Shown: positions 251-13,311 of the stretch, piece after piece
How the letters are laid out: each line of letters opens with the position of its first letter
How positions within the stretch are numbered: position 1 is the stretch's first letter
From: Escherichia coli
Lineage (GTDB): Bacteria; Pseudomonadota; Gammaproteobacteria; Enterobacterales; Enterobacteriaceae
Direction: 5' to 3' (one strand)
Length of the DNA: 64,000 nucleotides
Assembly (NCBI RefSeq): GCF_024502345.1
Contig: NZ_JALDNN010000001.1
The notes under the pieces: generated by a model
Told to the model about the DNA's origin: nothing
Database searches by the model: none
What the model saw: only the letters and a program-made list of their open reading frames with translations
Made by a program: the position numbers and the translations under genes

Positions 251-1483
251 TTATCTCTGCTCCCCCATCATCTCCCGCACCAGCTCCACGCAGCGCAGGA
301 AACGGCTGTCATAATCGTCCTCTTCAACCCGCACGAATTCGATATTGTTCTCTTCCAGCATCTCCACCAGCAAGTTCTGGAACTCTTTGCGATCCACCGA
401 ACTGCCGAGGCTGCGTAAACCATCCGCCACCCACGGCGTGTTGTTCTCCAGCAGGATCACCAGATCGAAACGGTATTCATCAATCAACGCCTGTACGAAC
501 GGATGCTCACGCCCTTCGTACTTTTTGCAGAACGCCTGGGTAGTGACAAAATCAGTGTCAATAAACGCCACTTTATTGGCATATTTCACTGCAAAATCAA
601 TGTATTGTGCGTGGCCCAGCGCGATTTTATCGTAATCGGAATACTGCAATGCGATCTCATCACCGCCGAGGTGTGAAAAGACATAATCGCGACCATATTC
701 CCACGCACTGGTGGTATTGAAGATATTGGCAAGTTTGTTTACCAGGGTGGATTTACCGCTCGACTCGCCACCAAGGATCGCCACGGTACGTACAAAGAAC
801 GGCTTCACTTCCGTAGGAATATATTCCCAGTAGCGGAACGGGTTTTCGCGGATCTGCGCACCGCTGATACTCATAAAGGTACGTTTCGGATCGACCAGCA
901 CCGTCTCGATCCCCAGATGTTCCATATACTGTGGCGCATCGGCTTCTTCCGAGGTGTAGATCAGGTCCGGCTGAATCCCCTTTTCAGCCATAAACTTTTT
1001 GATGCCGTTGCTCCACACATCCCAGCCGTGCGGATACGGCTCCATGCCCTCTTCGTTGAAAGCATGAATGCGAATATTTTTCTGATATTTAAAAGTTTGC
1101 AATAACCAGCGCAGACGATCCGGCACGGTCGGCTGCTGCGACATGGCACTGTCTTCGAACAACGCGCGGTCACGGGTATCGTCAAAACCCATAATGATAT
1201 GCAGCTCGTCAACCTGGCTACAGGCGCGCTGGATAAGGTAGATATGTCCGGTATGCAGTGGGTAGAACTTACCGAATACCACACCAATGGTTTTCTTCTG
1301 CCGGGGAAACTCAAGCCCCAAAAAACGGTGCAACGCCTCCAGCTTTTGCGCGCTGGGGCTTTTGATTTTGGCATTCAGTAACTGGCTTAAATACCCTTTG
1401 GTCATACCGCTGGCATCAGCTACCTGCTGTAGCGTGCAGCCCTGTTGCTTGATGGCAGTTTTCAGGTAATCAAATGACGACAT
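251..1483 (-). CDS. nadR: NadR: trifunctional NAD biosynthesis regulator / NMN adenylyltransferase / ribosylnicotinamide kinase
   Basis: ORF 251..1504; 410 aa from MSSFDYLKTAIKQQG matches remembered E. coli NadR; N-terminal HTH, P-loop GGESSGKST. Confidence 0.93.
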   Translation of the reverse strand: MSSFDYLKTAIKQQGCTLQQVADASGMTKGYLSQLLNAKIKSPSAQKLEALHRFLGLEFPRQKKTIGVVFGKFYPLHTGHIYLIQRACSQVDELHIIMGFDDTRDRALFEDSAMSQQPTVPDRLRWLLQTFKYQKNIRIHAFNEEGMEPYPHGWDVWSNGIKKFMAEKGIQPDLIYTSEEADAPQYMEHLGIETVLVDPKRTFMSISGAQIRENPFRYWEYIPTEVKPFFVRTVAILGGESSGKSTLVNKLANIFNTTSAWEYGRDYVFSHLGGDEIALQYSDYDKIALGHAQYIDFAVKYANKVAFIDTDFVTTQAFCKKYEGREHPFVQALIDEYRFDLVILLENNTPWVADGLRSLGSSVDRKEFQNLLVEMLEENNIEFVRVEEDDYDSRFLRCVELVREMMGEQR

Positions 1484-1503
1484 ATCTCCCTCCGTATTTC
1501 TCA

Positions 1504-2886
1504 TTATAAGTCGTCGAACACGCTAAGCGCGTCGGAGAGTTTTTTAACGCCAAAAATCTGCATCCCTTCCGGCGCTTTTTTCGGTACGTTAGCCGCCGGA
1601 ACAATCGCCCGGCGAAAACCGTGTTTCGCCGCTTCAGAGATTCGTTCCTGACCGCTGGGCACCGGGCGGATCTCCCCTGCCAGCCCGACTTCACCAAACA
1701 CCACCAGATCCTGCGGCAGCGGTCTGTCACGCAGGCTGGAAACCATCGCCAGCAGTAACGCTAAATCAGCGCTGGTTTCGGTCACCTTAACGCCGCCGAC
1801 CACGTTCACAAACACATCCTGATCGGCCATTTGCAGACCACCGTGACGGTGCAACACAGCCAGCAGGATTGCCAGACGGTTTTGTTCCAGCCCCACTGCC
1901 ACGCGGCGTGGGTTCGCCATCATCGAGTGATCGACCAGCGCCTGAATCTCCACCAGCAGTGGACGCGTTCCTTCCCATACCACCATCACTGAGCTACCGG
2001 AGGTCACTTCATCGCCGCGGCTTAAGAAAATTGCCGAAGGGTTGCTGACTTCACGCAGCCCCTGTTCGGTCATCGCGAAGACGCCCAGCTCATTCACCGC
2101 GCCGAAGCGGTTTTTATGGCTGCGCAAGGTGCGAAAACGGGAGTCGGCATCGCCATCCAAAAGCACCGAACAGTCGATACAGTGTTCCAGCACTTTCGGG
2201 CCAGCCAGCGAACCATCTTTGGTTACGTGCCCCACCATGACAATCGCCACACCGCGCGTTTTGGCGAAGCGTGTCAAATAAGCCGCTGTTTCACGCACCT
2301 GCGCCACGCTACCAGGCGATGACTGTACATCCGCCATATGCATCACCTGGATCGAGTCAATTACCATCAGCTTCGGTTGCTCTTCTTCGGCAATCAGGCA
2401 GATCTGTTCGATGCTGGTTTCCGACAACATATTGAGATTGTCAGTCGGCAGGCCAAGGCGATGAGCGCGCATTGCCACCTGTTGCAGCGACTCTTCGCCG
2501 GTGACATACAGCGTTTTCATCTGCTGGGCCAGTTTGCACAGCGTTTGCAGTAGCAGCGTGGATTTCCCCGCACCAGGGTTACCGCCAATCAGAATGGCAC
2601 TTCCTGGCACCACGCCGCCGCCTAGTACGCGGTCGAACTCTTTAAATCCGGTGGAAAAACGCGGCAGCTCTTCAAGGCTGATATCGGAGAGTTTCTGGAC
2701 TTTTGCCACCCCGGCGCTACCGGCATAGCCGCTGAGACGCTCGTTACGCGCCACCGTTGGCGACGCAGCAAGACGCACCTCGGTGATGGTGTTCCAGGCA
2801 TGACAGGCACTGCACTGCCCCTGCCAGCGCGGATAATCGGCCCCGCATTCATTACAAACAAAGGCGCGTTTTGGAGCTTTTGCCAC
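1504..2886 (-). CDS. radA: DNA repair protein RadA (Sms)
   Basis: ORF 1504..2934; 460 aa from GTG start (VAKAPKRAFVCNECG...), zinc finger CxxC-CxxC, Walker A GGNPGAGKST, Lon-like C-terminus. Confidence 0.92.
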   Translation of the reverse strand: MAKAPKRAFVCNECGADYPRWQGQCSACHAWNTITEVRLAASPTVARNERLSGYAGSAGVAKVQKLSDISLEELPRFSTGFKEFDRVLGGGVVPGSAILIGGNPGAGKSTLLLQTLCKLAQQMKTLYVTGEESLQQVAMRAHRLGLPTDNLNMLSETSIEQICLIAEEEQPKLMVIDSIQVMHMADVQSSPGSVAQVRETAAYLTRFAKTRGVAIVMVGHVTKDGSLAGPKVLEHCIDCSVLLDGDADSRFRTLRSHKNRFGAVNELGVFAMTEQGLREVSNPSAIFLSRGDEVTSGSSVMVVWEGTRPLLVEIQALVDHSMMANPRRVAVGLEQNRLAILLAVLHRHGGLQMADQDVFVNVVGGVKVTETSADLALLLAMVSSLRDRPLPQDLVVFGEVGLAGEIRPVPSGQERISEAAKHGFRRAIVPAANVPKKAPEGMQIFGVKKLSDALSVFDDL

Positions 2887-2934
2887 GGTGTACCTCGTTA
2901 ATGCTGTGCCGCCCGCAGGATGGCGGGCGAGCAA

Positions 2935-3903
2935 TTACTTCTGATTCAGGCTGCCTGAGAGGATGCAGAATACCCCCATCAGGTCAGCGTGACGGATGGT
3001 GACTTCCGCCTTTTCATTCACTTTTGGCTTGGCATGGTAGGCAATCCCCAGCCCTGCCGCTTTGATCATCGGCAGGTCATTGGCTCCATCGCCAATCGCC
3101 ACGGTCTGCGCCAGCGGGATTTCATACTCCTGCGCGAGGCGAGTCAGAGTTTTCGCTTTGTACTGCGCGTCTACGATGTCGCCGATCACATTGCCGGTAA
3201 ATTTACCGTCCATGATCTCCAGTTCATTGGCTACCACGGCTGTCAGGCGCAGCTTGTCGCGCAGGTATTCAGCAAAGAAAGTAAAGCCGCCGGAGGCAAT
3301 CGCCACTTTCCAGCCCAGCGTTTCCAGCTTGAGCACCAGTTGCGTTAAGCCTGGCATCAGCGGCAGATTTTCACGCACCTGTTGCAGAATATTGGCGTCA
3401 GCGCCTTTCAGCGCCGCCACACGGCTGCGCAGGCTGGCGGTAAAATCGAGTTCGCCGCGCATCGCCCGTTCGGTTACTTCCGCCACCATCTCGCCCGTTC
3501 CGGCCAGTTTGGCAATTTCATCAATACATTCAATCTGGATGGCGGTGGAATCCATGTCCATCACCAGCAAACCCGGCGTGCGCAGGTGCGGGATTTTCCC
3601 CAGCGGGGCGACATCCAGTTGCGCTTCATGGGCCAGGCGCGTAGCCCGTGCGGTGAGTGAACCTGCCAGACGAATCACCTGATAATCTTCCACGCACCAG
3701 GCGGCAACAATCACCATCGCCGCACCCAGTTTGCTCTGGTATTGGGTCAGACGCTGTTTATCCAGCCCACGACCATACAGCAGCCAGCCGCTACGACCTG
3801 CGTGGTAATCCAGTGGCATCACTTCATCACCACTTAATGAAAGAGGCAGACCCGGCCATAAAGAGACATCTTCAGGCAGGTCGCACCAGGTAATGTTAGG
3901 CAT
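2935..3903 (-). CDS. serB: Phosphoserine phosphatase
   Basis: 322 aa from MPNITWCDLPEDVSLW; HAD motif DMDSTAI; the longer ORF 2935..4041 is an upstream extension. Confidence 0.92.
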   Translation of the reverse strand: MPNITWCDLPEDVSLWPGLPLSLSGDEVMPLDYHAGRSGWLLYGRGLDKQRLTQYQSKLGAAMVIVAAWCVEDYQVIRLAGSLTARATRLAHEAQLDVAPLGKIPHLRTPGLLVMDMDSTAIQIECIDEIAKLAGTGEMVAEVTERAMRGELDFTASLRSRVAALKGADANILQQVRENLPLMPGLTQLVLKLETLGWKVAIASGGFTFFAEYLRDKLRLTAVVANELEIMDGKFTGNVIGDIVDAQYKAKTLTRLAQEYEIPLAQTVAIGDGANDLPMIKAAGLGIAYHAKPKVNEKAEVTIRHADLMGVFCILSGSLNQK

Positions 3904-4008
3904 TAAGGCTCCTGTAAAATCGTTCGAAGCAGGGAAAATAACGCATGAGGCTACCTTGTATCCATTGCTTCTGGCAACATTAAGTCTCAAATTTTCAAAG
4001 GGTGGAAG

Positions 4009-4653
4009 ATGGCTCGCACAAAACTGAAATTCCGGCTGCATCGGGCAGTGATTGTCCTGTTCTGTCTTGCCTTGTTAGTGGCGCTGATGCAGGGGGCGTC
4101 ATGGTTTAGTCAAAACCACCAGCGACAGCGTAATCCACAGCTGGAAGAACTGGCCCGCACCCTGGCGCGTCAGGTGACGCTGAACGTTGCACCGCTGATG
4201 CGTACCGACTCACCGGATGAAAAACGCATTCAGGCGATCCTCGATCAGTTAACGGATGAAAGCCGTATCCTCGACGCGGGTGTGTATGACGAACAAGGCG
4301 ATCTTATCGCACGTTCTGGCGAAAGCGTCGAAGTGCGCGACCGGCTGGCGCTCGACGGTAAAAAAGCGGGCGGTTATTTTAACCAGCAGATTGTCGAACC
4401 AATTGCCGGGAAAAACGGACCGCTCGGTTATCTGCGCCTGACGCTCGACACCCATACGCTCGCCACCGAAGCCCAACAGGTGGATAACACCACTAACATT
4501 TTACGCCTGATGTTGCTGCTCTCACTGGCAATCGGCGTAGTGCTGACCCGCACGCTGCTACAGGGTAAACGTACCCGCTGGCAGCAATCGCCCTTCCTGT
4601 TAACCGCCAGCAAACCGGTGCCGGAAGAGGAAGAAAGCGAGAAAAAAGAGTGA
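4009..4653 (+). CDS. ytjB: Membrane protein YtjB (Smp)
   Basis: 214 aa MARTKLKFRLHRAVIVLFCL..., N-terminal TM segment, conserved position between serB and lplA. Confidence 0.85.
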   Translation: MARTKLKFRLHRAVIVLFCLALLVALMQGASWFSQNHQRQRNPQLEELARTLARQVTLNVAPLMRTDSPDEKRIQAILDQLTDESRILDAGVYDEQGDLIARSGESVEVRDRLALDGKKAGGYFNQQIVEPIAGKNGPLGYLRLTLDTHTLATEAQQVDNTTNILRLMLLLSLAIGVVLTRTLLQGKRTRWQQSPFLLTASKPVPEEEESEKKE

Positions 4654-4680: not shown

Positions 4681-5697
4681 ATGTCCACATTACGCCTGCT
4701 CATCTCTGACTCTTACGACCCGTGGTTTAACCTGGCGGTGGAAGAGTGTATTTTTCGCCAAATGCCCGCCACGCAGCGCGTTCTGTTTCTCTGGCGCAAT
4801 GCCGACACGGTAGTAATTGGTCGCGCGCAGAACCCGTGGAAAGAGTGTAATACCCGGCGGATGGAAGAAGATAACGTCCGCCTGGCGCGGCGCAGTAGCG
4901 GTGGCGGCGCGGTGTTCCACGATCTCGGCAATACCTGCTTTACCTTTATGGCTGGCAAGCCGGAGTACGATAAAACCATCTCCACGTCGATTGTGCTCAA
5001 TGCGCTGAACGCGCTCGGCGTCAGCGCCGAAGCGTCCGGACGTAACGATCTGGTGGTGAAAACCGCCGAAGGCGACCGCAAAGTCTCAGGATCGGCCTAT
5101 CGCGAAACCAAAGATCGTGGCTTCCACCACGGCACCTTGCTGCTCAATGCCGACCTTAGCCGCCTGGCAAACTATCTCAACCCAGATAAAAAGAAACTGG
5201 CGGCGAAAGGCATTACCTCAGTGCATTCCCGCGTGACCAACCTCACCGAGCTGCTGCCGGGGATCACCCATGAGCAGGTTTGCGAGGCCATAACCGAGGC
5301 CTTTTTCGCCCATTATGGCGAGCGCGTGGAAGCGGAAATCATCTCCCCGGACAAAACGCCAGACTTGCCAAACTTCGCCGAAACCTTTGCCCGCCAGAGT
5401 AGCTGGGAGTGGAACTTCGGTCAGGCTCCGGCATTCTCGCATCTGCTGGATGAACGCTTTAGCTGGGGCGGCGTGGAACTGCATTTCGACGTTGAAAAAG
5501 GCCATATCACCCGCGCCCAGGTGTTTACCGACAGCCTCAACCCCGCGCCGCTGGAAGGCCTCGCCGGGCGACTGCAAGGCTGCCTGTACCGCGCGGATAT
5601 GCTGCAACAAGAGTGCGAAGCGCTGTTGGTTGACTTCCCGGACCAGGAAAAAGAGCTACGGGAGTTGTCGACGTGGATAGCGGGGGCGGTAAGGTAA
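4681..5697 (+). CDS. lplA: Lipoate-protein ligase A
   Basis: 338 aa [22 protein letters not shown]... matches LplA. Confidence 0.93.
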
Positions 5698-5728
5698 CTC
5701 GCTGATTAAAATACCAAAGGAAGGGAAT

Positions 5729-5992
5729 ATGATCGATCTGGAAAACCAAGAGCGGGAGATTATCAATTTAATGTTAAGCCAGCGTATTTCCTGGCTAGCC
5801 GCCGTGCGTATCAGGCATAAATTATCGCTTGCTGAAGTAAGTAAAATGTTAGGTATCTCGATTAATTCTCTAAAATAGATCGAAAAGACGGAACGGTTTA
5901 GCTCAAACATCAAAAGCAAAATGGCAGAAATTTATGGTTGTCCACCAGAGTTGCTGATATGCCCTTCCTGGATGACGGCTGAACATAAATGA
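5729..5992 (+). pseudogene. XRE-like HTH reading frame interrupted by one in-frame TAG (MIDLENQEREIINLM...ISINSLK*IEKTERFSSNIKSKMAEIYGCPPELL)
   Basis: AGGAAG RBS then ATG at 5729; 49 codons, TAG, then 37 more in-frame codons with an HTH-like tail; occupies the lplA-deoD gap where I recall yjjJ in K-12. Confidence 0.35.
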
Positions 5993-6090
5993 ATAGATTC
6001 GTGAATAGATACTTGAATGTATTTTATTTTCTATCCATATGAAAAATAATAGTAAATCTATAAATCAGTTGCTATTGATGAATAGATACT

Positions 6091-6119
6091 AAAAAGCCGG
6101 AGCAGTCTCCCGCTCCGGC
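6091..6119 (-). terminator. Rho-independent terminator downstream of deoD
   Basis: GCCGGAGC / GCTCCGGC stem followed by a T-run on the minus strand, just past the deoD stop. Confidence 0.7.
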
Positions 6120-6152
6120 TTAACACAACAATCGTCTTTCAGCGAAACACAA

Positions 6153-6872
6153 TTACTCTTTATCGCCCAGCAGAACGGATTCCAGTGCGATTTTGATCAT
6201 GTCGTTGAAGGTGGTCTGACGCTCAGCGGCAGTGGTTTGCTCGTGAGTGCGGATGTGGTCAGACACGGTGCAGATGGTCAGGGCTTTCGCGCCAAACTCT
6301 GCAGCCACGCCGTAGATACCAGCCGCTTCCATTTCCACGCCGAGAATGCCGTATTTTTCCATCACGTCGAACATTTCGCCGTCCGGAGAGTAGAACAGGT
6401 CAGCGGAGAACAGGTTACCCACGCGAGCATCAACGCCCAGTGCTTTAGCCGCGTCTACCGCGTTACGCACCATGTCAAAGTCAGCGATAGCGGCAAAGTC
6501 ATGATCTTTAAAACGGATGCGGTTAACTTTGGAATCGGTGCAGGCACCCATACCGATAACGACGTCGCGCAGTTTTACGTGCGGCAGAACTGCGCCACAG
6601 GAACCCACGCGGATAATTTTCTTCACGCCGAAATCGGTGATCAGTTCTTTGGTGTAGATGGAGCAGGACGGGATACCCATACCGTGACCCATTACGGAAA
6701 TTTTGCGGCCTTTGTAAGTACCGGTGAAGCCCAGCATACCGCGAACGTTGTTCACTTCACGGGCATCTTCAAGGAAAGTTTCAGCAATATACTTCGCACG
6801 CAGCGGGTCGCCTGGCATCAAAACTACGTCAGCGAAATCGCCCATTTCTGCATTAATGTGTGGGGTAGCCAT
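6153..6872 (-). CDS. deoD: Purine nucleoside phosphorylase
   Basis: 239 aa [31 protein letters not shown]... matches DeoD. Confidence 0.95.
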
Positions 6873-6890
6873 TGTTTTATCCTTATCAAC

Positions 6891-6947
6891 ATGTTTTCAC
6901 CCTCTCCCTGTGGGAGAGGGCCGGGGTGAGGGCATCAAGCCGCACCC
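6891..6947. repeat. Intergenic stem-loop between deoB and deoD (CCCTCTCCC...GGGAGAGGG)
   Basis: Inverted repeat seen directly in the 79-bp deoB-deoD spacer. Confidence 0.4.
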
Positions 6948-6951
6948 ATTA

Positions 6952-8196
<1,245 letters not shown>

Positions 8197-8226
8197 TCAA
8201 ATTTAAATGATCAGATCAGTATACCG

Positions 8227-9549
8227 TTATTCGCTGATACGGCGATAGACAGTTGGTGTGCTTTCCGGTGCTTTATCGGCAAGTTTAATTGCCGCTTTCA
8301 CCGCTTTCGCCGCTTCCTGCCAGCTGTTTTCGTCTTTCGCGTGGATAACCGCCAGCGGACGCTGACCGTCTACCTGGTCGCCCAGACGCGCCATATCAGT
8401 AAAGCCGACGCTGTAATCGATGGTGTCAGATGCCTGACGGCGTCCACCGCCCATTGCAACCACTGCCATCCCCAGCGCGCGGGTATCCATTTCACTGACA
8501 AAACCTTCGGTATCAGCATAGACTGCTTTCGTCAGCATCGCTGTCGGCAGATACTTCGCGTAGTTCTCAACGAAGTCGGTCGGGCCTTTTTGTGCCGCTA
8601 CCATACGACCAAAGACTTCTGCCGCTTTACCGTTGTCCAGCACCGCCTGCAATTTCGCGCGCGCTTCGGCGTCATCTTTCGCCAGTTTGCCGGAGATCAG
8701 CATCTCCACGCACAGCGCCATCGTGACATCAAACAGACGCGGGTTACGATATTCACCCGTCAGGAACTGCACCGCTTCACGAACTTCAACCGCGTTACCT
8801 GCACTGGAGGCCAGCACCTGATTCATATCGGTGAGCAGCGCGGTGGTGCGCACGCCAGCGCCGTTAGCCACGCCAACAATCGCTTCGGCAAGGGCTTCAG
8901 AGAGTTCGTAGGTCGGCATAAACGCGCCGCTACCCACTTTCACGTCCATCACCAGCGCATCCAGACCTTCCGCAAGTTTCTTCGCCAGAATAGAGGCGGT
9001 GATCAGCGGGATGGAGTCCACGGTTGCGGTAATATCACGGGTCGCGTAGAAACGTTTATCCGCCGGAGCCAGTGAGCTGGTCTGACCGATAATCGCCACG
9101 CCGACGTCTTTAATAATTTCGCGGAAACGGTTGTCATCCGGGAAAATGTCGAAGCCAGGGATGGATTCCAGTTTGTCTAGCGTACCGCCAGTATGACCGA
9201 GGCCACGACCGGAGATCATCGGAATATAGCCGCCGCAGGCAGCGACCATCGGCCCCAACATCAGCGAAGTGACATCGCCGACGCCACCGGTGGAGTGTTT
9301 ATCAACAATCGGTCCATTCAGATGCAGGCTTTTCCAGTCGAGAACGGTTCCTGAATCTCGCATCGCCATGGTCAGCGAGACACGCTCAGGCATTGTCATA
9401 TCGTGGAAGAAAATGGTCATCGCGAGGGCGGCAATCTGCCCTTCGGAGATAGTGTTGTCGCGAATACCGTTGATAAAGAAACGAATTTCTTCATCGCTCA
9501 GCGCATGACCATCACGTTTTTTACGAATAATTTCTTGTGCGAGAAACAA
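8227..9549 (-). CDS. deoA: Thymidine phosphorylase
   Basis: 440 aa [31 protein letters not shown]... matches DeoA. Confidence 0.95.
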
Positions 9550-9574
9550 GGTAACCTCCCGAGGAAAAGAGTAT

Positions 9575-9672
9575 GAGGCGGCTTTTGCCGGATGCGTCTA
9601 CGCCTTATCCGGCCTACGGGTAGATACGTCTCGTAGGCCTGATAAGCGCAGCGCATCAGGCGTAAAGCATCT
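9575..9672. repeat. REP element between deoC and deoA
   Basis: GCCGGATGCG...CGCATCAGGCG palindromic units. Confidence 0.6.
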
Positions 9673-9675
9673 TAC

Positions 9676-10455
9676 TTAGTAGCTGCTGGCGCTCTTACCG
9701 TCGCCGTGGCCCAGCGCTTTCAGCAGGCTTGCCAGCAGGCTGGAAGCGCCAAAGCGGTAGTGACGCGCATCTGCCCAGTCAGCACCGAACAGTTCATCTG
9801 CGATGGCGAGATATTTCTGCGCATCTTCCGCAGTACGCACGCCGCCCGCCGGTTTGAAACCAACGTTTTTTTCTACGCCCATATCACGGATCACTTCCAT
9901 CATGATCCGCGCGCTTTCCGGCGTCGCGTTCACTGCCACTTTACCGGTAGAGGTTTTGATGAAGTCAGCACCCGCTTTGATGGAGATTTCAGACGCTTTG
10001 CGGATCAGCGCTTCGTCTTTCAGTTCGCCGGTTTCGATGATCACTTTCAGCAGTACATTCGCTGCCGCGCAAGCCTCTTTACAGGCTTTCACCAGGTCAA
10101 AACCAACCTGCTCGTTACCCGCCATCAGCGCGCGGTACGGGAACACAACGTCAACTTCATCAGCACCGTAGGCGATTGCCGCACGGGTTTCTGCCAGCGC
10201 GATTTCGATGTCGTCGTTACCGTGTGGGAAGTTGGTTACCGTAGCAATACGGATTTCCGGGGTGCCCTGCTCTTTCAGTGTCTTGCGAGCAATCGGGATA
10301 AAGCGAGGATAGATACAGATAGCGGCGGTATTGCCGACCGGCGTTTTGGCCTGATGACACAGGGCGATCACTTTCTCGTCGGTGTCGTCGTCATTCAGGG
10401 TGGTCAGGTCCATCAATTTCAGTGCACGCAGGCTGCTTGCTTTCAGATCAGTCAT
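9676..10455 (-). CDS. deoC: Deoxyribose-phosphate aldolase
   Basis: 259 aa from [19 protein letters not shown] with AGGAGA RBS; ORF 9676..10479 is an upstream extension. Confidence 0.95.
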
Positions 10456-10499: not shown

Positions 10500-10515
10500 T
10501 GTTAGTATTCTAACA
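10500..10515. promoter_or_regulatory. DeoR operator-like palindrome TGTTAGTATTCTAACA (deoP2-proximal)
   Basis: 16-bp palindrome ~45 bp upstream of the deoC ATG; matches remembered DeoR operator TGTTAGAA-TTCTAACA. Confidence 0.7.
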
Positions 10516-10519
10516 TCTA

Positions 10520-10620
10520 CTCCGCAACACACTTCGATACACATCACAATTAAGGAAATCTACTTACAAGTTTGCATCACTGTAATGCGATCTGGTTCAA
10601 ATAATTCACTTTCAAATGAA
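10520..10620 (-). promoter_or_regulatory. deoP2 region with CRP/CytR sites
   Basis: Reverse complement contains TTATTTGAACCAGATCGCATTACAGTGATGCAAACTTGTAAG, which matches the deoP2 tandem CRP region as I recall it. Confidence 0.55.
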
Positions 10621-10712
10621 TGCGTCAGTGGTGGCAAACGCATCAGGATCAAAGTGAACATCACGAAACTTCTTACAATGGCGCATCACCTTCGGCATAA
10701 AAGGAAAAGAAG

Positions 10713-12263
10713 ATGCCCACTTCTCATGAAAATGCACTGCAACAACGTTGCCAGCAAATTGTCACCAGCCCAGTGCTTAGCCCGGAGCAGAAGCGCCATT
10801 TTCTGGCACTGGAAGCAGAAAACAATCTGCCTTACCCACAGCTTCCTGCCGAAGCCCGCCGCGCGCTGGATGAAGGTGTAATCTGCGATATGTTTGAAGG
10901 TCATGCGCCGTACAAACCGCGCTATGTCTTACCCGATTACGCCCGTTTTCTGGCGAACGGTTCCGAATGGCTGGAGCTGGAAGGCGCGAAAGATCTTGAT
11001 GACGCACTCTCTCTGCTGACCATTCTTTACCACCACGTACCGTCGGTCACATCGATGCCGGTCTACCTGGGGCAACTGGATGCGTTGTTGCAACCGTATG
11101 TTAGAATTCTAACACAAGACGAGATCGATCTTCGAATAAAACGTTTCTGGCGTTACCTCGACAGAACCCTGCCAGACGCCTTTATGCACGCCAATATCGG
11201 CCCGTCTGATTCGCCTATTACCCGCGCGATCTTACGTGCAGACGCAGAGTTGAAGCAGGTTTCACCGAACCTGACCTTTATCTACGATCCTGAAATCACC
11301 CCTGATGACCTGCTGCTGGAAGTGGCGAAGAACATCTGTGAATGTAGCAAACCGCACATCGCCAACGGTCCGGTGCATGATAAAATTTTCACAAAAGGGG
11401 GCTACGGGATTGTGAGCTGTTACAACTCACTGCCGCTGGCTGGTGGTGGCAGCACGCTGGTACGCCTTAACCTGAAAGCCATTGCCGAGCGCAGCGAATC
11501 GCTGGATGACTTCTTTACGCGCACTCTACCGCACTACTGCCAGCAGCAGATCGCCATCATCGATGCGCGGTGTGAATTCCTCTATCAACAATCACACTTC
11601 TTTGAGAATAGCTTCCTGGTGAAAGAAGGGCTGATTAACCCTGAACGTTTTGTGCCAATGTTTGGCATGTATGGGCTGGCGGAAGCGGTTAACTTGCTGT
11701 GTGAGAAAGAAGGGATTGCCGCGCGCTACGGTAAAGAAGCCGCCGCAAATGAAGTGGGTTATCGCATCAGCGCGCAACTGGCGGAGTTTGTCGCCAATAC
11801 CCCCGTGAAATATGGCTGGCAAAAACGCGCCATGTTACACGCACAGTCGGGGATCAGTTCCGATATCGGCACCACGCCGGGCGCGCGTTTGCCGTATGGC
11901 GATGAGCCAGATCCGATCACCCATCTGCAAACTGTCGCCCCGCATCATGCTTATTATTATTCCGGCATCAGCGACATTCTGACGCTCGACGAAACCATCA
12001 AACGTAACCCGCAGGCACTGGTACAGCTTTGCCTCGGTGCCTTTAAAGCCGGAATGCGTGAATTTACTGCCAATGTCAGCGGTAACGATCTGGTTCGCGT
12101 TACCGGTTATATGGTGCGTTTGTCGGATTTAGAAAAATATCGCGCCGAAGGTTCACGCACCAACACCACCTGGCTGGGCGAAGAAGCCGCACGCAACACT
12201 CGTATTCTGGAACGCCAGCCGCGCGTGATAAGCCATGAACAGCAGATGCGCTTTAGTCAGTAA
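10713..12263 (+). CDS. yjjI: YjjI, putative glycyl-radical enzyme (C-terminal RVTGY motif), substrate unknown
   Basis: 516-aa ORF; glycine-radical-like motif RVTGYMV near the C-terminus; followed by an activase-like gene. Confidence 0.85.
11099..11114. promoter_or_regulatory. Second DeoR operator-like palindrome TGTTAGAATTCTAACA (deoP1 candidate)
   Basis: Perfect 16-bp palindrome exactly 599 bp from the proximal site, the operator spacing I recall for the deo operon; lies inside the yjjI coding sequence. Confidence 0.6.
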
Positions 12264-13098
12264 GATTATCCCCTTCTCCTGCGTTGACGGGCCAGGCAGT
12301 CGTCTGGCTCTGTTTTTGCAGGGCTGCAATCTGCGCTGCAAAAACTGTCACAATCCGTGGACGATGGGACGCTGCAATGATTGCGGAGAGTGCGTGCCAC
12401 AGTGTCCGCATCAGGCGTTGCAGATTGTTGACGGCAAAGTGCTGTGGAACGCTGTGGTCTGCGAGCAATGTGATACCTGCCTGAAGAGGTGTCCGCAACA
12501 TGCCACGCCAATGGCGCAATCCATGAGCGTGGATGAGGTGCTTAGCCATATCCGCAAAGCGGTGCTGTTTATTGAAGGGATAACGGTAAGCGGCGGCGAA
12601 GCCACGACCCAACTGTCGTTTGTAGTGGCGCTATTTACAGCCATCAAAAACGATCCGCAACTGCGCCACCTCACCTGCCTCGTGGACAGTAACGGTATGT
12701 TGAGCGAAACCGGCTGGGAAAAATTACTCCCGGTGTGCGACGGCGCGATGCTCGATCTCAAAGCGTGGGGGAGCGAATGTCATCAGCAATTAACCGGACG
12801 CGATAATCAGCAGATTAAGCGCAGCATCTGTTTGCTGGCAGAGCGCGGTAAGCTGGCGGAACTGCGTTTGCTGGTAATTCCAGACCAGGTGGATTATTTG
12901 CATCACATCGATGAGCTGGCGACGTTTATCAAGAGACTTGGCGATGTTCCGGTTCGCCTGAATGTGTTTCATGCCCACGGCGTGTATGGCGAGGCGCAAA
13001 GCTGGGCGAGCGCCACGCCGGAAGACGTTGAGCCGTTGGCTGATGCGTTAAAGGTGCGCGGGGTGAGCCGGTTGATATTTCCGGCGCTCTATTTGTGA
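12235..13098 (+). CDS. yjjW: YjjW, glycyl-radical enzyme activating enzyme (radical SAM)
   Basis: 287 aa; CxxxCxxC-type cysteine clusters ([20 protein letters not shown]), PFL-activase-like N-terminus [15 protein letters not shown]. Confidence 0.85.
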
Positions 13099-13099
13099 C

Positions 13100-13295
13100 A
13101 TGCCGGATACGGCCTACGGTTCGGCACAAACCTGTAGGCATGATAAGACGCGTCAAGCGTCGCATCAGGCATTGTGCGCCAACTGCCGGATGCGGCGTGA
13201 ACGCCTTATCCGGCCTACGGTTCGGCACAAACCTGTAGGCATGATAAGACGCGACAAGCGTCGCATCAGGCATTATGCGCCGACTGCCGGATGCT
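13100..13295. repeat. BIME cluster (several REP units)
   Basis: Repeated GCCGGATGCGGCGTGAACGCCTTATCCGGCCTACG and CGTCGCATCAGGCAT units. Confidence 0.7.
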
Positions 13296-13311
13296 GCCTA
13301 CGAAGGGCAAA

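Follow-up and report, generated by a model that had tools for sequence, protein, structure and literature searches.

Within a 64,000-nucleotide stretch of Escherichia coli DNA (contig NZ_JALDNN010000001.1, hereafter the window) lies a two-gene operon, yjjI-yjjW, that encodes a compact glycyl radical enzyme together with its dedicated radical-SAM (S-adenosylmethionine) activase. The first gene, yjjI, is an open reading frame (ORF) at 10713..12263 on the forward strand coding for a 516-amino acid YjjI-family glycyl radical enzyme. Its 3′ end overlaps by 29 nt with yjjW (12235..13098, forward strand), the ORF of a 287-amino acid YjjW-family glycyl-radical-enzyme activase. The divergent neighbour of yjjI is deoC (9676..10455, reverse strand; protein start MTDLKASS), the first gene of deoCABD, and RefSeq annotates all three genes identically in E. 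coli. At least 80% of the yjjI-yjjW stretch is held by 5422 of 5426 complete E. coli genomes, with 99% identity to many of them. YjjI scores 787 bits against the family model TIGR04040 (curated cut-off 498) and 732 bits against PF11230 (cut-off 23), while YjjW scores 393 bits against TIGR04041 (curated cut-off 250) and also matches TIGR02494; scores of this size lie far beyond chance. The families TIGR04040/PF11230 and TIGR04041 are named after the E. coli K-12 proteins, whose RefSeq product names are “DUF3029 domain-containing protein YjjI” and “putative glycyl-radical enzyme activating enzyme YjjW,” and both TIGR models are typed as “hypoth_equivalog” in NCBIfam, meaning that the function is not known. 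Our search of the searchable literature, with subscription-only papers outside its reach, returned no substrate assignment for YjjI, and no solved structure turned up either. The pair is an already known and annotated, functionally orphan one, and as far as we know every glycyl radical enzyme of E. coli K-12 except YjjI now has an assigned reaction. A preceding model-made annotation of this DNA, termed here the sequence-only reading, had likewise called the pair uncharacterised, and the typing of the family models, the DUF3029 name, the lack of a sequence relative in the PDB and the lack of a substrate paper all agree with that view.

The sequence-only reading had also placed a glycyl radical enzyme and its activase at 10713-13098, pointing to a C-terminal RVTGY motif in YjjI and to a radical-SAM protein with Cys clusters in YjjW. 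The ORFs lie at exactly these coordinates, and family models, invariant Gly and Cys residues, predicted fold and gene pairing all support the identification. Translation of 12081-12125 places RVTGY at residues 462-466 (R462-V463-T464-G465-Y466; 12096..12110, forward strand), with G465 as the radical site, an assignment that rests on its invariance and on an alignment with pyruvate formate-lyase (PFL). We aligned 23 full-length YjjI members with identity down to 29% and obtained 15 invariant columns, including R462, G465, and C236; the radical glycine, for which the sequence-only reading had proposed a check in alignments, is therefore present throughout. C236 is the sole invariant Cys of this alignment and belongs to a V-S-C-Y-N loop (S235-C236-Y237-N238; 11415..11426, forward strand), where homolog and PFL profile alignments mark it as the putative thiyl-radical residue and where N238 is at least 90% conserved. 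The family itself has few members: when 1.84 billion cluster representatives were scanned exhaustively with HMMER, 543 relatives emerged, many of them fragments.

A single-sequence search of the PDB with YjjI returned no relative. A YjjI profile run against PDB sequences gave marginal matches to PFL, YbiW, and NrdD whose value is limited to an alignment of the Cys and Gly loops, in which YGIVSCYN lies opposite YAIACCVS of PFL, setting C236 at PFL C419, and RVTGY lies opposite RVSGY. In Pfam, E. coli YjjI has no match to PF02901 and no ATP-cone or NRDD match at E ≤0.1, and weak precomputed matches to both NRDD and PFL-like models occur among its homologs. The confident AlphaFold model of YjjI shows the ten-stranded alpha/beta barrel of glycyl radical enzymes and ribonucleotide reductases (RNRs). 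The nearest structures to this model are three class III RNRs (9d3x, 30.5; 4u3e, 28.0; 8p23, 27.7), followed by PflD (27.6), IslA (26.3), CutC (25.9), and PFL (25.3), with class I and II RNRs at 15-22. Profile-profile alignment by hhalign of the YjjI family with E. coli NrdD gave 89% probability over 406 columns. Strong purifying selection acts on both genes: in comparisons with Salmonella, Citrobacter, and Kluyvera, the ratio of nonsynonymous to synonymous substitution rates (dN/dS) comes to 0.04-0.05 in yjjI and 0.08-0.09 in yjjW, in each case with saturated dS. YjjI is almost certainly a genuine glycyl radical enzyme, with YjjW as its activase.

The activase carries its own signatures. YjjW bears the radical-SAM [4Fe-4S] motif C31-x3-C35-x2-C38 (GCNLRCKNC; 12325..12348, forward strand), seen in the translation and matched by Pfam Radical_SAM and Fer4_12. 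Codons 47-86 (12373..12492, forward strand) encode two CX2CX2CX3C ferredoxin-type motifs for auxiliary clusters, formed by C47/50/53/57 and C76/79/82/86 and covered by Fer4_9, Fer4_7, and Fer4 at residues 44-90. After TIGR04041, the next-best NCBIfam matches of YjjW are eliminase-type activases (the HypD activase at 141 bits and those of sulfopropanediol dehydratase and CutC), and its scores against NrdG models (49.6 to 65 bits) stay below the cut-offs of 126-131. The pairing extends well beyond E. coli. An activase gene adjoins YjjI in 40 of 48 lineages, defined by grouping YjjI proteins at 70% identity, and in 79 of 80 Enterobacterales loci, that is, in all that reach past the 3′ end of yjjI (L018 ends there). 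The activases paired with YjjI homologs in an actinobacterial and an archaeal locus (L081 and L092) are about 250 amino acids long and have no Fer4 matches, therefore the auxiliary-cluster insert is not universal in the family.

Compared with the known glycyl radical enzymes, YjjI shares features with several classes and fits no characterised one. Against class III RNR (NrdD) it has only 13-18% sequence identity, is about 200 residues shorter, and lacks both the ATP cone and the C-terminal Zn ribbon; one Cys only is found in its last 80 residues. Reduction by NrdD needs a second, bottom-face catalytic Cys (C175 in E. coli, C79 in T4), whereas the aligned YjjI segment is a Cys-free APYxPRYxLPDY with no conserved second Cys elsewhere. 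The Cys loop differs as well (SCYN in YjjI, GCRS in E. coli NrdD), and the two-cluster ferredoxin insert of YjjW has no counterpart in NrdG. The glycyl-radical 1,2-eliminases (PflD, YbiW, glycerol/propanediol dehydratase, CutC, HypD, and IslA) resemble the YjjI system in their activases, which have two auxiliary [4Fe-4S] cluster motifs as YjjW does. These enzymes are, however, about 765-850 residues long compared with about 516 for YjjI, and their GCxE loop provides a general-base Glu at Cys+2, where YjjI has Asn238. PflD and YbiW have, we presume, recently been assigned as sugar-phosphate dehydratases; both are listed as probable dehydratases in PDB entries 8yjo and 8yjn. PFL (PflB/TdcE) is similar in that its Cys loop and RVxGY motif align with those of YjjI and that both are anaerobic E. 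coli enzymes controlled by FNR. On the other hand, PFL has a C418-C419 pair where YjjI has S235-C236, its coenzyme A/pyruvate context has no counterpart around YjjI, and PflA is not known to carry the ferredoxin insert of YjjW. YjjI represents a branch of its own, compact at about 500 residues, and its predicted fold places this small, distinct branch structurally between class III RNRs and PFL-like enzymes.

The published record on the pair concerns its expression. Chromatin immunoprecipitation (ChIP) revealed FNR binding at yjjI along with FNR-dependent anaerobic activation (PMC3688515), and both yjjI and yjjW were assigned to an FNR-activated class (PMC2634741). Anaerobic induction of both genes was also reported in Yersinia intermedia (PMC3792023). 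In the window we predict an FNR box at 10639..10652 (forward strand), in which a match and conservation are confined to the half nearer the promoter, ATCAA (10648-10652), and a −10 hexamer TACAAT at 10674..10679 (forward strand), lying in a block that is conserved as CTACAAT or CTACACT in the upstream alignment. The sequence GGATCAA is kept in 10 of 11 aligned enterobacterial regions upstream of yjjI; the half box lies about 22 nt before TACAAT. From the centre of the predicted FNR box to the predicted start there are about 41 bp, a spacing typical of class II FNR promoters. The sole match to the FNR consensus with at most two mismatches (10534-10547) was rejected as the CRP site of deoP2, in agreement with a CRP ChIP site, peaks having been mapped in the yjjI/deoC spacer and within yjjI (PMC4287617).

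The boundary between yjjI and deo is not a simple one: the sequence-only reading mentioned deo operators next to the pair but did not notice that two of the three, along with deoP1, lie within yjjI itself. Three DeoR operators can be placed here, none of them assigned to a strand. O2, at deoP2, is TGTTAGTATTCTAACA (10500..10515), one mismatch away from the 16-bp palindrome and conserved in position in deo-bearing loci; O1, at deoP1, is the perfect palindrome TGTTAGAATTCTAACA (11099..11114); and O_E is a degenerate copy, TGATAAAATTTTCACA (11378..11393), detected at the same position in L023 and L078. O1 and O_E both lie inside yjjI, which puts deoP1 too within the coding region of yjjI, in the opposite orientation, and all three fall within the first 230 codons. 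The spacings are 599 bp from O2 to O1 and 279 bp from O1 to O_E, which we take to be the published deo operator distances. O1 is read by yjjI as codons 129-134, Tyr-Val-Arg(AGA)-Ile-Leu(CTA)-Thr, in a length-variable and poorly conserved segment of the protein alignment. The predicted yjjI promoter and the start codon sit within the O2-O1 loop, about 100 bp from the CRP/CytR sites of deoP2, and DeoR, CytR, and CRP probably also affect yjjI expression in E. coli. Transcripts from deoP1 would run antisense to the first ~400 nt of the yjjI mRNA.

The distribution of O1 follows that of deo. Adjacency of deo to the pair is found in Enterobacteriaceae, Hafnia, and Edwardsiella, and O1 occurs at the same codon position with 0-2 mismatches in 72 of 72 Enterobacterales loci with other evidence of this adjacency (69 with deoC detected beside yjjI and three whose upstream flank is truncated or fragmented). 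It is absent from all eight Proteus and Providencia loci without deo, which complete the set of 80 Enterobacterales loci. In these loci O1 is kept only where deo adjoins yjjI. In Proteus the pair directly follows nadR-radA-serB-smp (5279-9771 of locus L070, Proteus cibi); the same four genes are found at 257-4611 of the window, where smp and yjjI stand about 6 kb apart, with the DNA from the lplA side to deoCABD in between. It follows that the block from lplA to deoC was inserted or deleted at a chromosomal position that is itself fixed. Because two of the three DeoR operators and deoP1 are located inside yjjI, part of the adjacency signal reflects regulatory overlap and is not evidence of a shared function.

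An independent view of the function comes from outside Enterobacterales. Since the contig scan of genomes gave Enterobacterales only, distant loci were collected by exact-protein look-ups and by scanning metagenomes once with a profile built from distant members, and the ORF neighbours of YjjI in the 48 lineages were clustered within 7 kb. After the activase, the commonest neighbours are a double-domain ATP-binding cassette (ABC) ATPase (21/48), BPD_transp_2 permeases (14/48), a Bmp/PnrA-type nucleoside-binding lipoprotein (13/48), and an IU-nucleoside hydrolase (IUNH; 9/48). These are followed by a LacI-type regulator in seven lineages, a PfkB kinase in six, a PNP_UDP_1 phosphorylase in five, and a deaminase-type amidohydrolase in three. 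The family labels were confirmed by Pfam, and in NCBIfam the representative of the PfkB kinases scores as a ribokinase (TIGR02152) while the phosphorylases score as purine nucleoside phosphorylases (PNPs), all above curated cut-offs. A Bmp, IUNH, or PNP gene lies within 7 kb of YjjI in 18 of 47 non-enterobacterial lineages, in 16 of them on the same strand, and in 17 of the 38 lineages having at least 6 kb of flank. The corresponding binomial P is ~2e-16 at an assumed and generous background of 3% and with shared ancestry ignored.

These neighbourhoods are operon-like and varied in gene order, as illustrated by IUNH-Bmp-ABC-perm-perm-YjjI-activase, YjjI-activase-Bmp-ABC-perm-perm-amidohydrolase-PNP, LacI-YjjI-activase-amidohydrolase-IUNH-ABC, and IUNH-(ADP-ribosylglycohydrolase)-PfkB-PNP-(sulfatase)-YjjI-activase-MFS-Bmp-ABC, where perm stands for permease and MFS for major facilitator superfamily. 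YjjI proteins of the nucleoside-linked lineages are only 38-69% identical to each other, and the named homologs in this part of the family come mostly from Clostridia, plus Atribacteria. More sporadic neighbours include M20 hydrolases, GATase1-like and PRAI-like proteins, a sulfatase, ADP-ribosylglycohydrolases, HhH-GPD proteins, and toxin-antitoxin genes. The sequence-only reading had seen in the deo adjacency a hint of a linked anaerobic function and had suggested a genome-context survey of yjjI orthologs; this survey, with its 18 of 47 lineages, strengthens the nucleoside part of that hint by independent neighbourhoods outside Enterobacterales.

Taken together, our best reading is that YjjI would be a glycyl-radical enzyme induced by FNR that works as a lyase or dehydratase on a substrate derived from nucleosides, the chemistry being what we infer. 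We regard a role of yjjI-yjjW in nucleoside catabolism as likely. That an anaerobic glycyl-radical pair acts on a nucleoside-derived substrate is on balance the best overall explanation, and one we hold with moderate confidence. The substrate is read as nucleoside-derived because in Clostridia and other anaerobes the pair clusters on the same strand with genes for a Bmp transporter, a hydrolase, PNP, and ribokinase, and because deoCABD abuts it in Enterobacteriaceae. A CNT nucleoside transporter gene inserted after yjjW in Kluyvera and relatives also speaks for the nucleoside link. In the mechanism we propose, FNR would switch the operon on under anoxia, and YjjW would cleave SAM and take a hydrogen from G465 to leave a glycyl radical. 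The radical would then be relayed from G465 to C236, whose thiyl form would abstract a hydrogen from the substrate. This substrate would be either a nucleoside or something released when one is cleaved, with the ribosyl moiety as the most likely candidate, and the reaction at the ribosyl diol may be a redox-neutral radical elimination that resembles the first half of RNR catalysis. Such an elimination is favoured over net reduction because YjjI has no second redox Cys and its activase is eliminase-like; it is nevertheless the weakest step of the proposal, and elimination chemistry on a ribosyl group can be put forward only tentatively.

In its most explicit form, the proposal has YjjI performing the first RNR half only, in which Cys236 would abstract the 3′-hydrogen of a ribonucleoside, ribose, or ribose phosphate, the 2′-hydroxyl would leave as water, and the hydrogen would be returned to give a 2-deoxy-3-keto sugar with no external reductant. 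We consider this specific version, its candidate substrates included, doubtful. If true, it would define a new glycyl radical enzyme class and a so far unrecognised anaerobic route for the breakdown of nucleoside pentose, wired in enterobacteria to the deo operon.

Several observations weigh against this best explanation. As many as 29 of the 47 non-enterobacterial lineages have no nearby nucleoside gene, although many of them are on short contigs, and the archaeal, actinobacterial, Proteus, Providencia, and other loci have unrelated neighbours. Beyond Enterobacterales, the pair has no deoC beside it. All standard steps are already covered by the enzymes of the nucleoside operons, and the neighbours included no additional enzyme that goes constantly with YjjI, which leaves YjjI with no evident step of its own. 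The context sample is skewed to relatives of one query (P0137), the lineages are not phylogenetically independent, and the 3% background behind the binomial P is an assumption. On the regulatory side, only a half FNR site was found upstream of yjjI and no full consensus.

The same operons can be read as pointing to the base and not to the sugar. YjjI may act on a base, a modified nucleoside, or another co-transported compound, for example through purine or pyrimidine ring cleavage or removal of a 2′-substituent, and not on ribose. The ribokinase, hydrolase, and phosphorylase in these operons already handle ribose fully, a chemically inert step is where a radical mechanism would more plausibly be required, and the deaminase-family amidohydrolases in three lineages and M20 hydrolases in two point to base chemistry. 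Genes of base-degradation pathways, however, do not travel consistently with the pair, the nearest structural relatives of YjjI act on the ribose ring, and in E. coli the pair adjoins the sugar-handling deo genes. We see a substrate of this kind as unlikely.

The nucleoside and deo associations could also be positional or regulatory accidents around a pair serving another anaerobic process, such as nitrogen or respiratory metabolism. Expression data from E. coli and Salmonella co-cluster yjjI with narGHJI, from which a speculative role in “nitrogen metabolism” was proposed (PMC3228777), and yjjI has been grouped with respiration genes (PMC6643234). The Proteus pair, standing at the same chromosomal site without deo, reduces the deo adjacency to an indel, and many lineages have no nucleoside context at all. 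Nevertheless, the nar co-expression is explained by shared FNR control and no nar, nir, or nrf genes were found among the neighbours in the 48 lineages, for which we reject nitrogen metabolism as the primary role. Moreover, the nucleoside link recurs in varied gene orders among the divergent lineages described above, and an accident of this sort seems to us improbable.

Another alternative takes the structural likeness to class III RNRs at face value and makes YjjI a minimal class III-type reductase that would convert ribosyl compounds (nucleosides, nucleotides, or ribose phosphate) to deoxyribosyl ones with formate or another reductant. Its three best structural matches are such enzymes, many homologs show weak NRDD matches in Pfam, and the divergent neighbour deoC consumes deoxyribose 5-phosphate; there is also one locus (L119) in which a class II, B12-dependent RNR (6585-9014) is directly upstream of YjjI. 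The reductase features are missing, however. C236 is the sole invariant Cys while the region of NrdD C175 aligns with a segment free of Cys, neither the ATP cone nor the C-terminal Zn ribbon is present, and the activase is of the ferredoxin-containing eliminase type and not NrdG-like. deoC is absent from the non-enterobacterial operons, and strict anaerobiosis stops the growth of E. coli nrdD mutants, which shows that YjjI is no substitute for NrdD. All these points make a reductase very improbable.

Finally, the idea that yjjI-yjjW has fallen silent or is decaying in E. coli, a relic retained only for the embedded deoP1, O1, and O_E, has in its favour that the deo regulatory DNA would alone select for keeping that stretch of yjjI, but it is effectively refuted by the low dN/dS over the whole gene, by frames intact at the level of DNA coverage in 5422 of 5426 E. 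coli genomes, by invariant catalytic residues in genes that are transcribed and regulated by FNR, and by purifying selection on yjjW, which is free of deo sites.

The present analysis places YjjI structurally beside class III RNRs yet without their reductase features, locates deo operators and deoP1 inside yjjI where they co-vary with deo adjacency, and adds an independent, recurrent link to operons for nucleoside uptake and cleavage, by which the orphan becomes testable. Gene context narrows the candidate substrates to common nucleosides, ribose, ribose 1- or 5-phosphate, deoxyribose phosphates, and free bases. Assignment of the substrate would bring a new reaction type to the superfamily, and it could bring to light a step by which gut Enterobacteriaceae and Clostridia use nucleosides anaerobically. 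The operators within yjjI are, in their own right, a clean natural example of a neighbour's regulatory DNA constraining a coding sequence.

Some further features were noticed around the pair. In a Clostridia-like locus, a PLP (pyridoxal 5′-phosphate)-dependent enzyme of the PALP family (L103, 13083-14456) and, in the following ORF, a second activase-family gene are located just downstream of the YjjI operon. In the window, the gap between yjjW and yjjV (13102-13297) contains two tandem copies of ~95 nt, 93% identical and spaced by 101 bp, that resemble repetitive extragenic palindromic (REP) sequences or bacterial interspersed mosaic elements (BIMEs), and these copies explain why a BLAST query hit each E. 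coli genome at a median of 37 places. The E. coli gap holds REP elements only and no gene for a nucleoside transporter of the CNT (concentrative nucleoside transporter) family, and in Kluyvera ascorbata (L046, 12381-13658) a 425-amino acid transporter of this family (NupC-type) lies between yjjW and yjjV, convergent with yjjW. The same gap harbours a CNT transporter in L029, L044, L047, L049, L052-L055, L058, L060, L063, L077, and L078; Kluyvera, Trabulsiella, and related genera carry the insertion.

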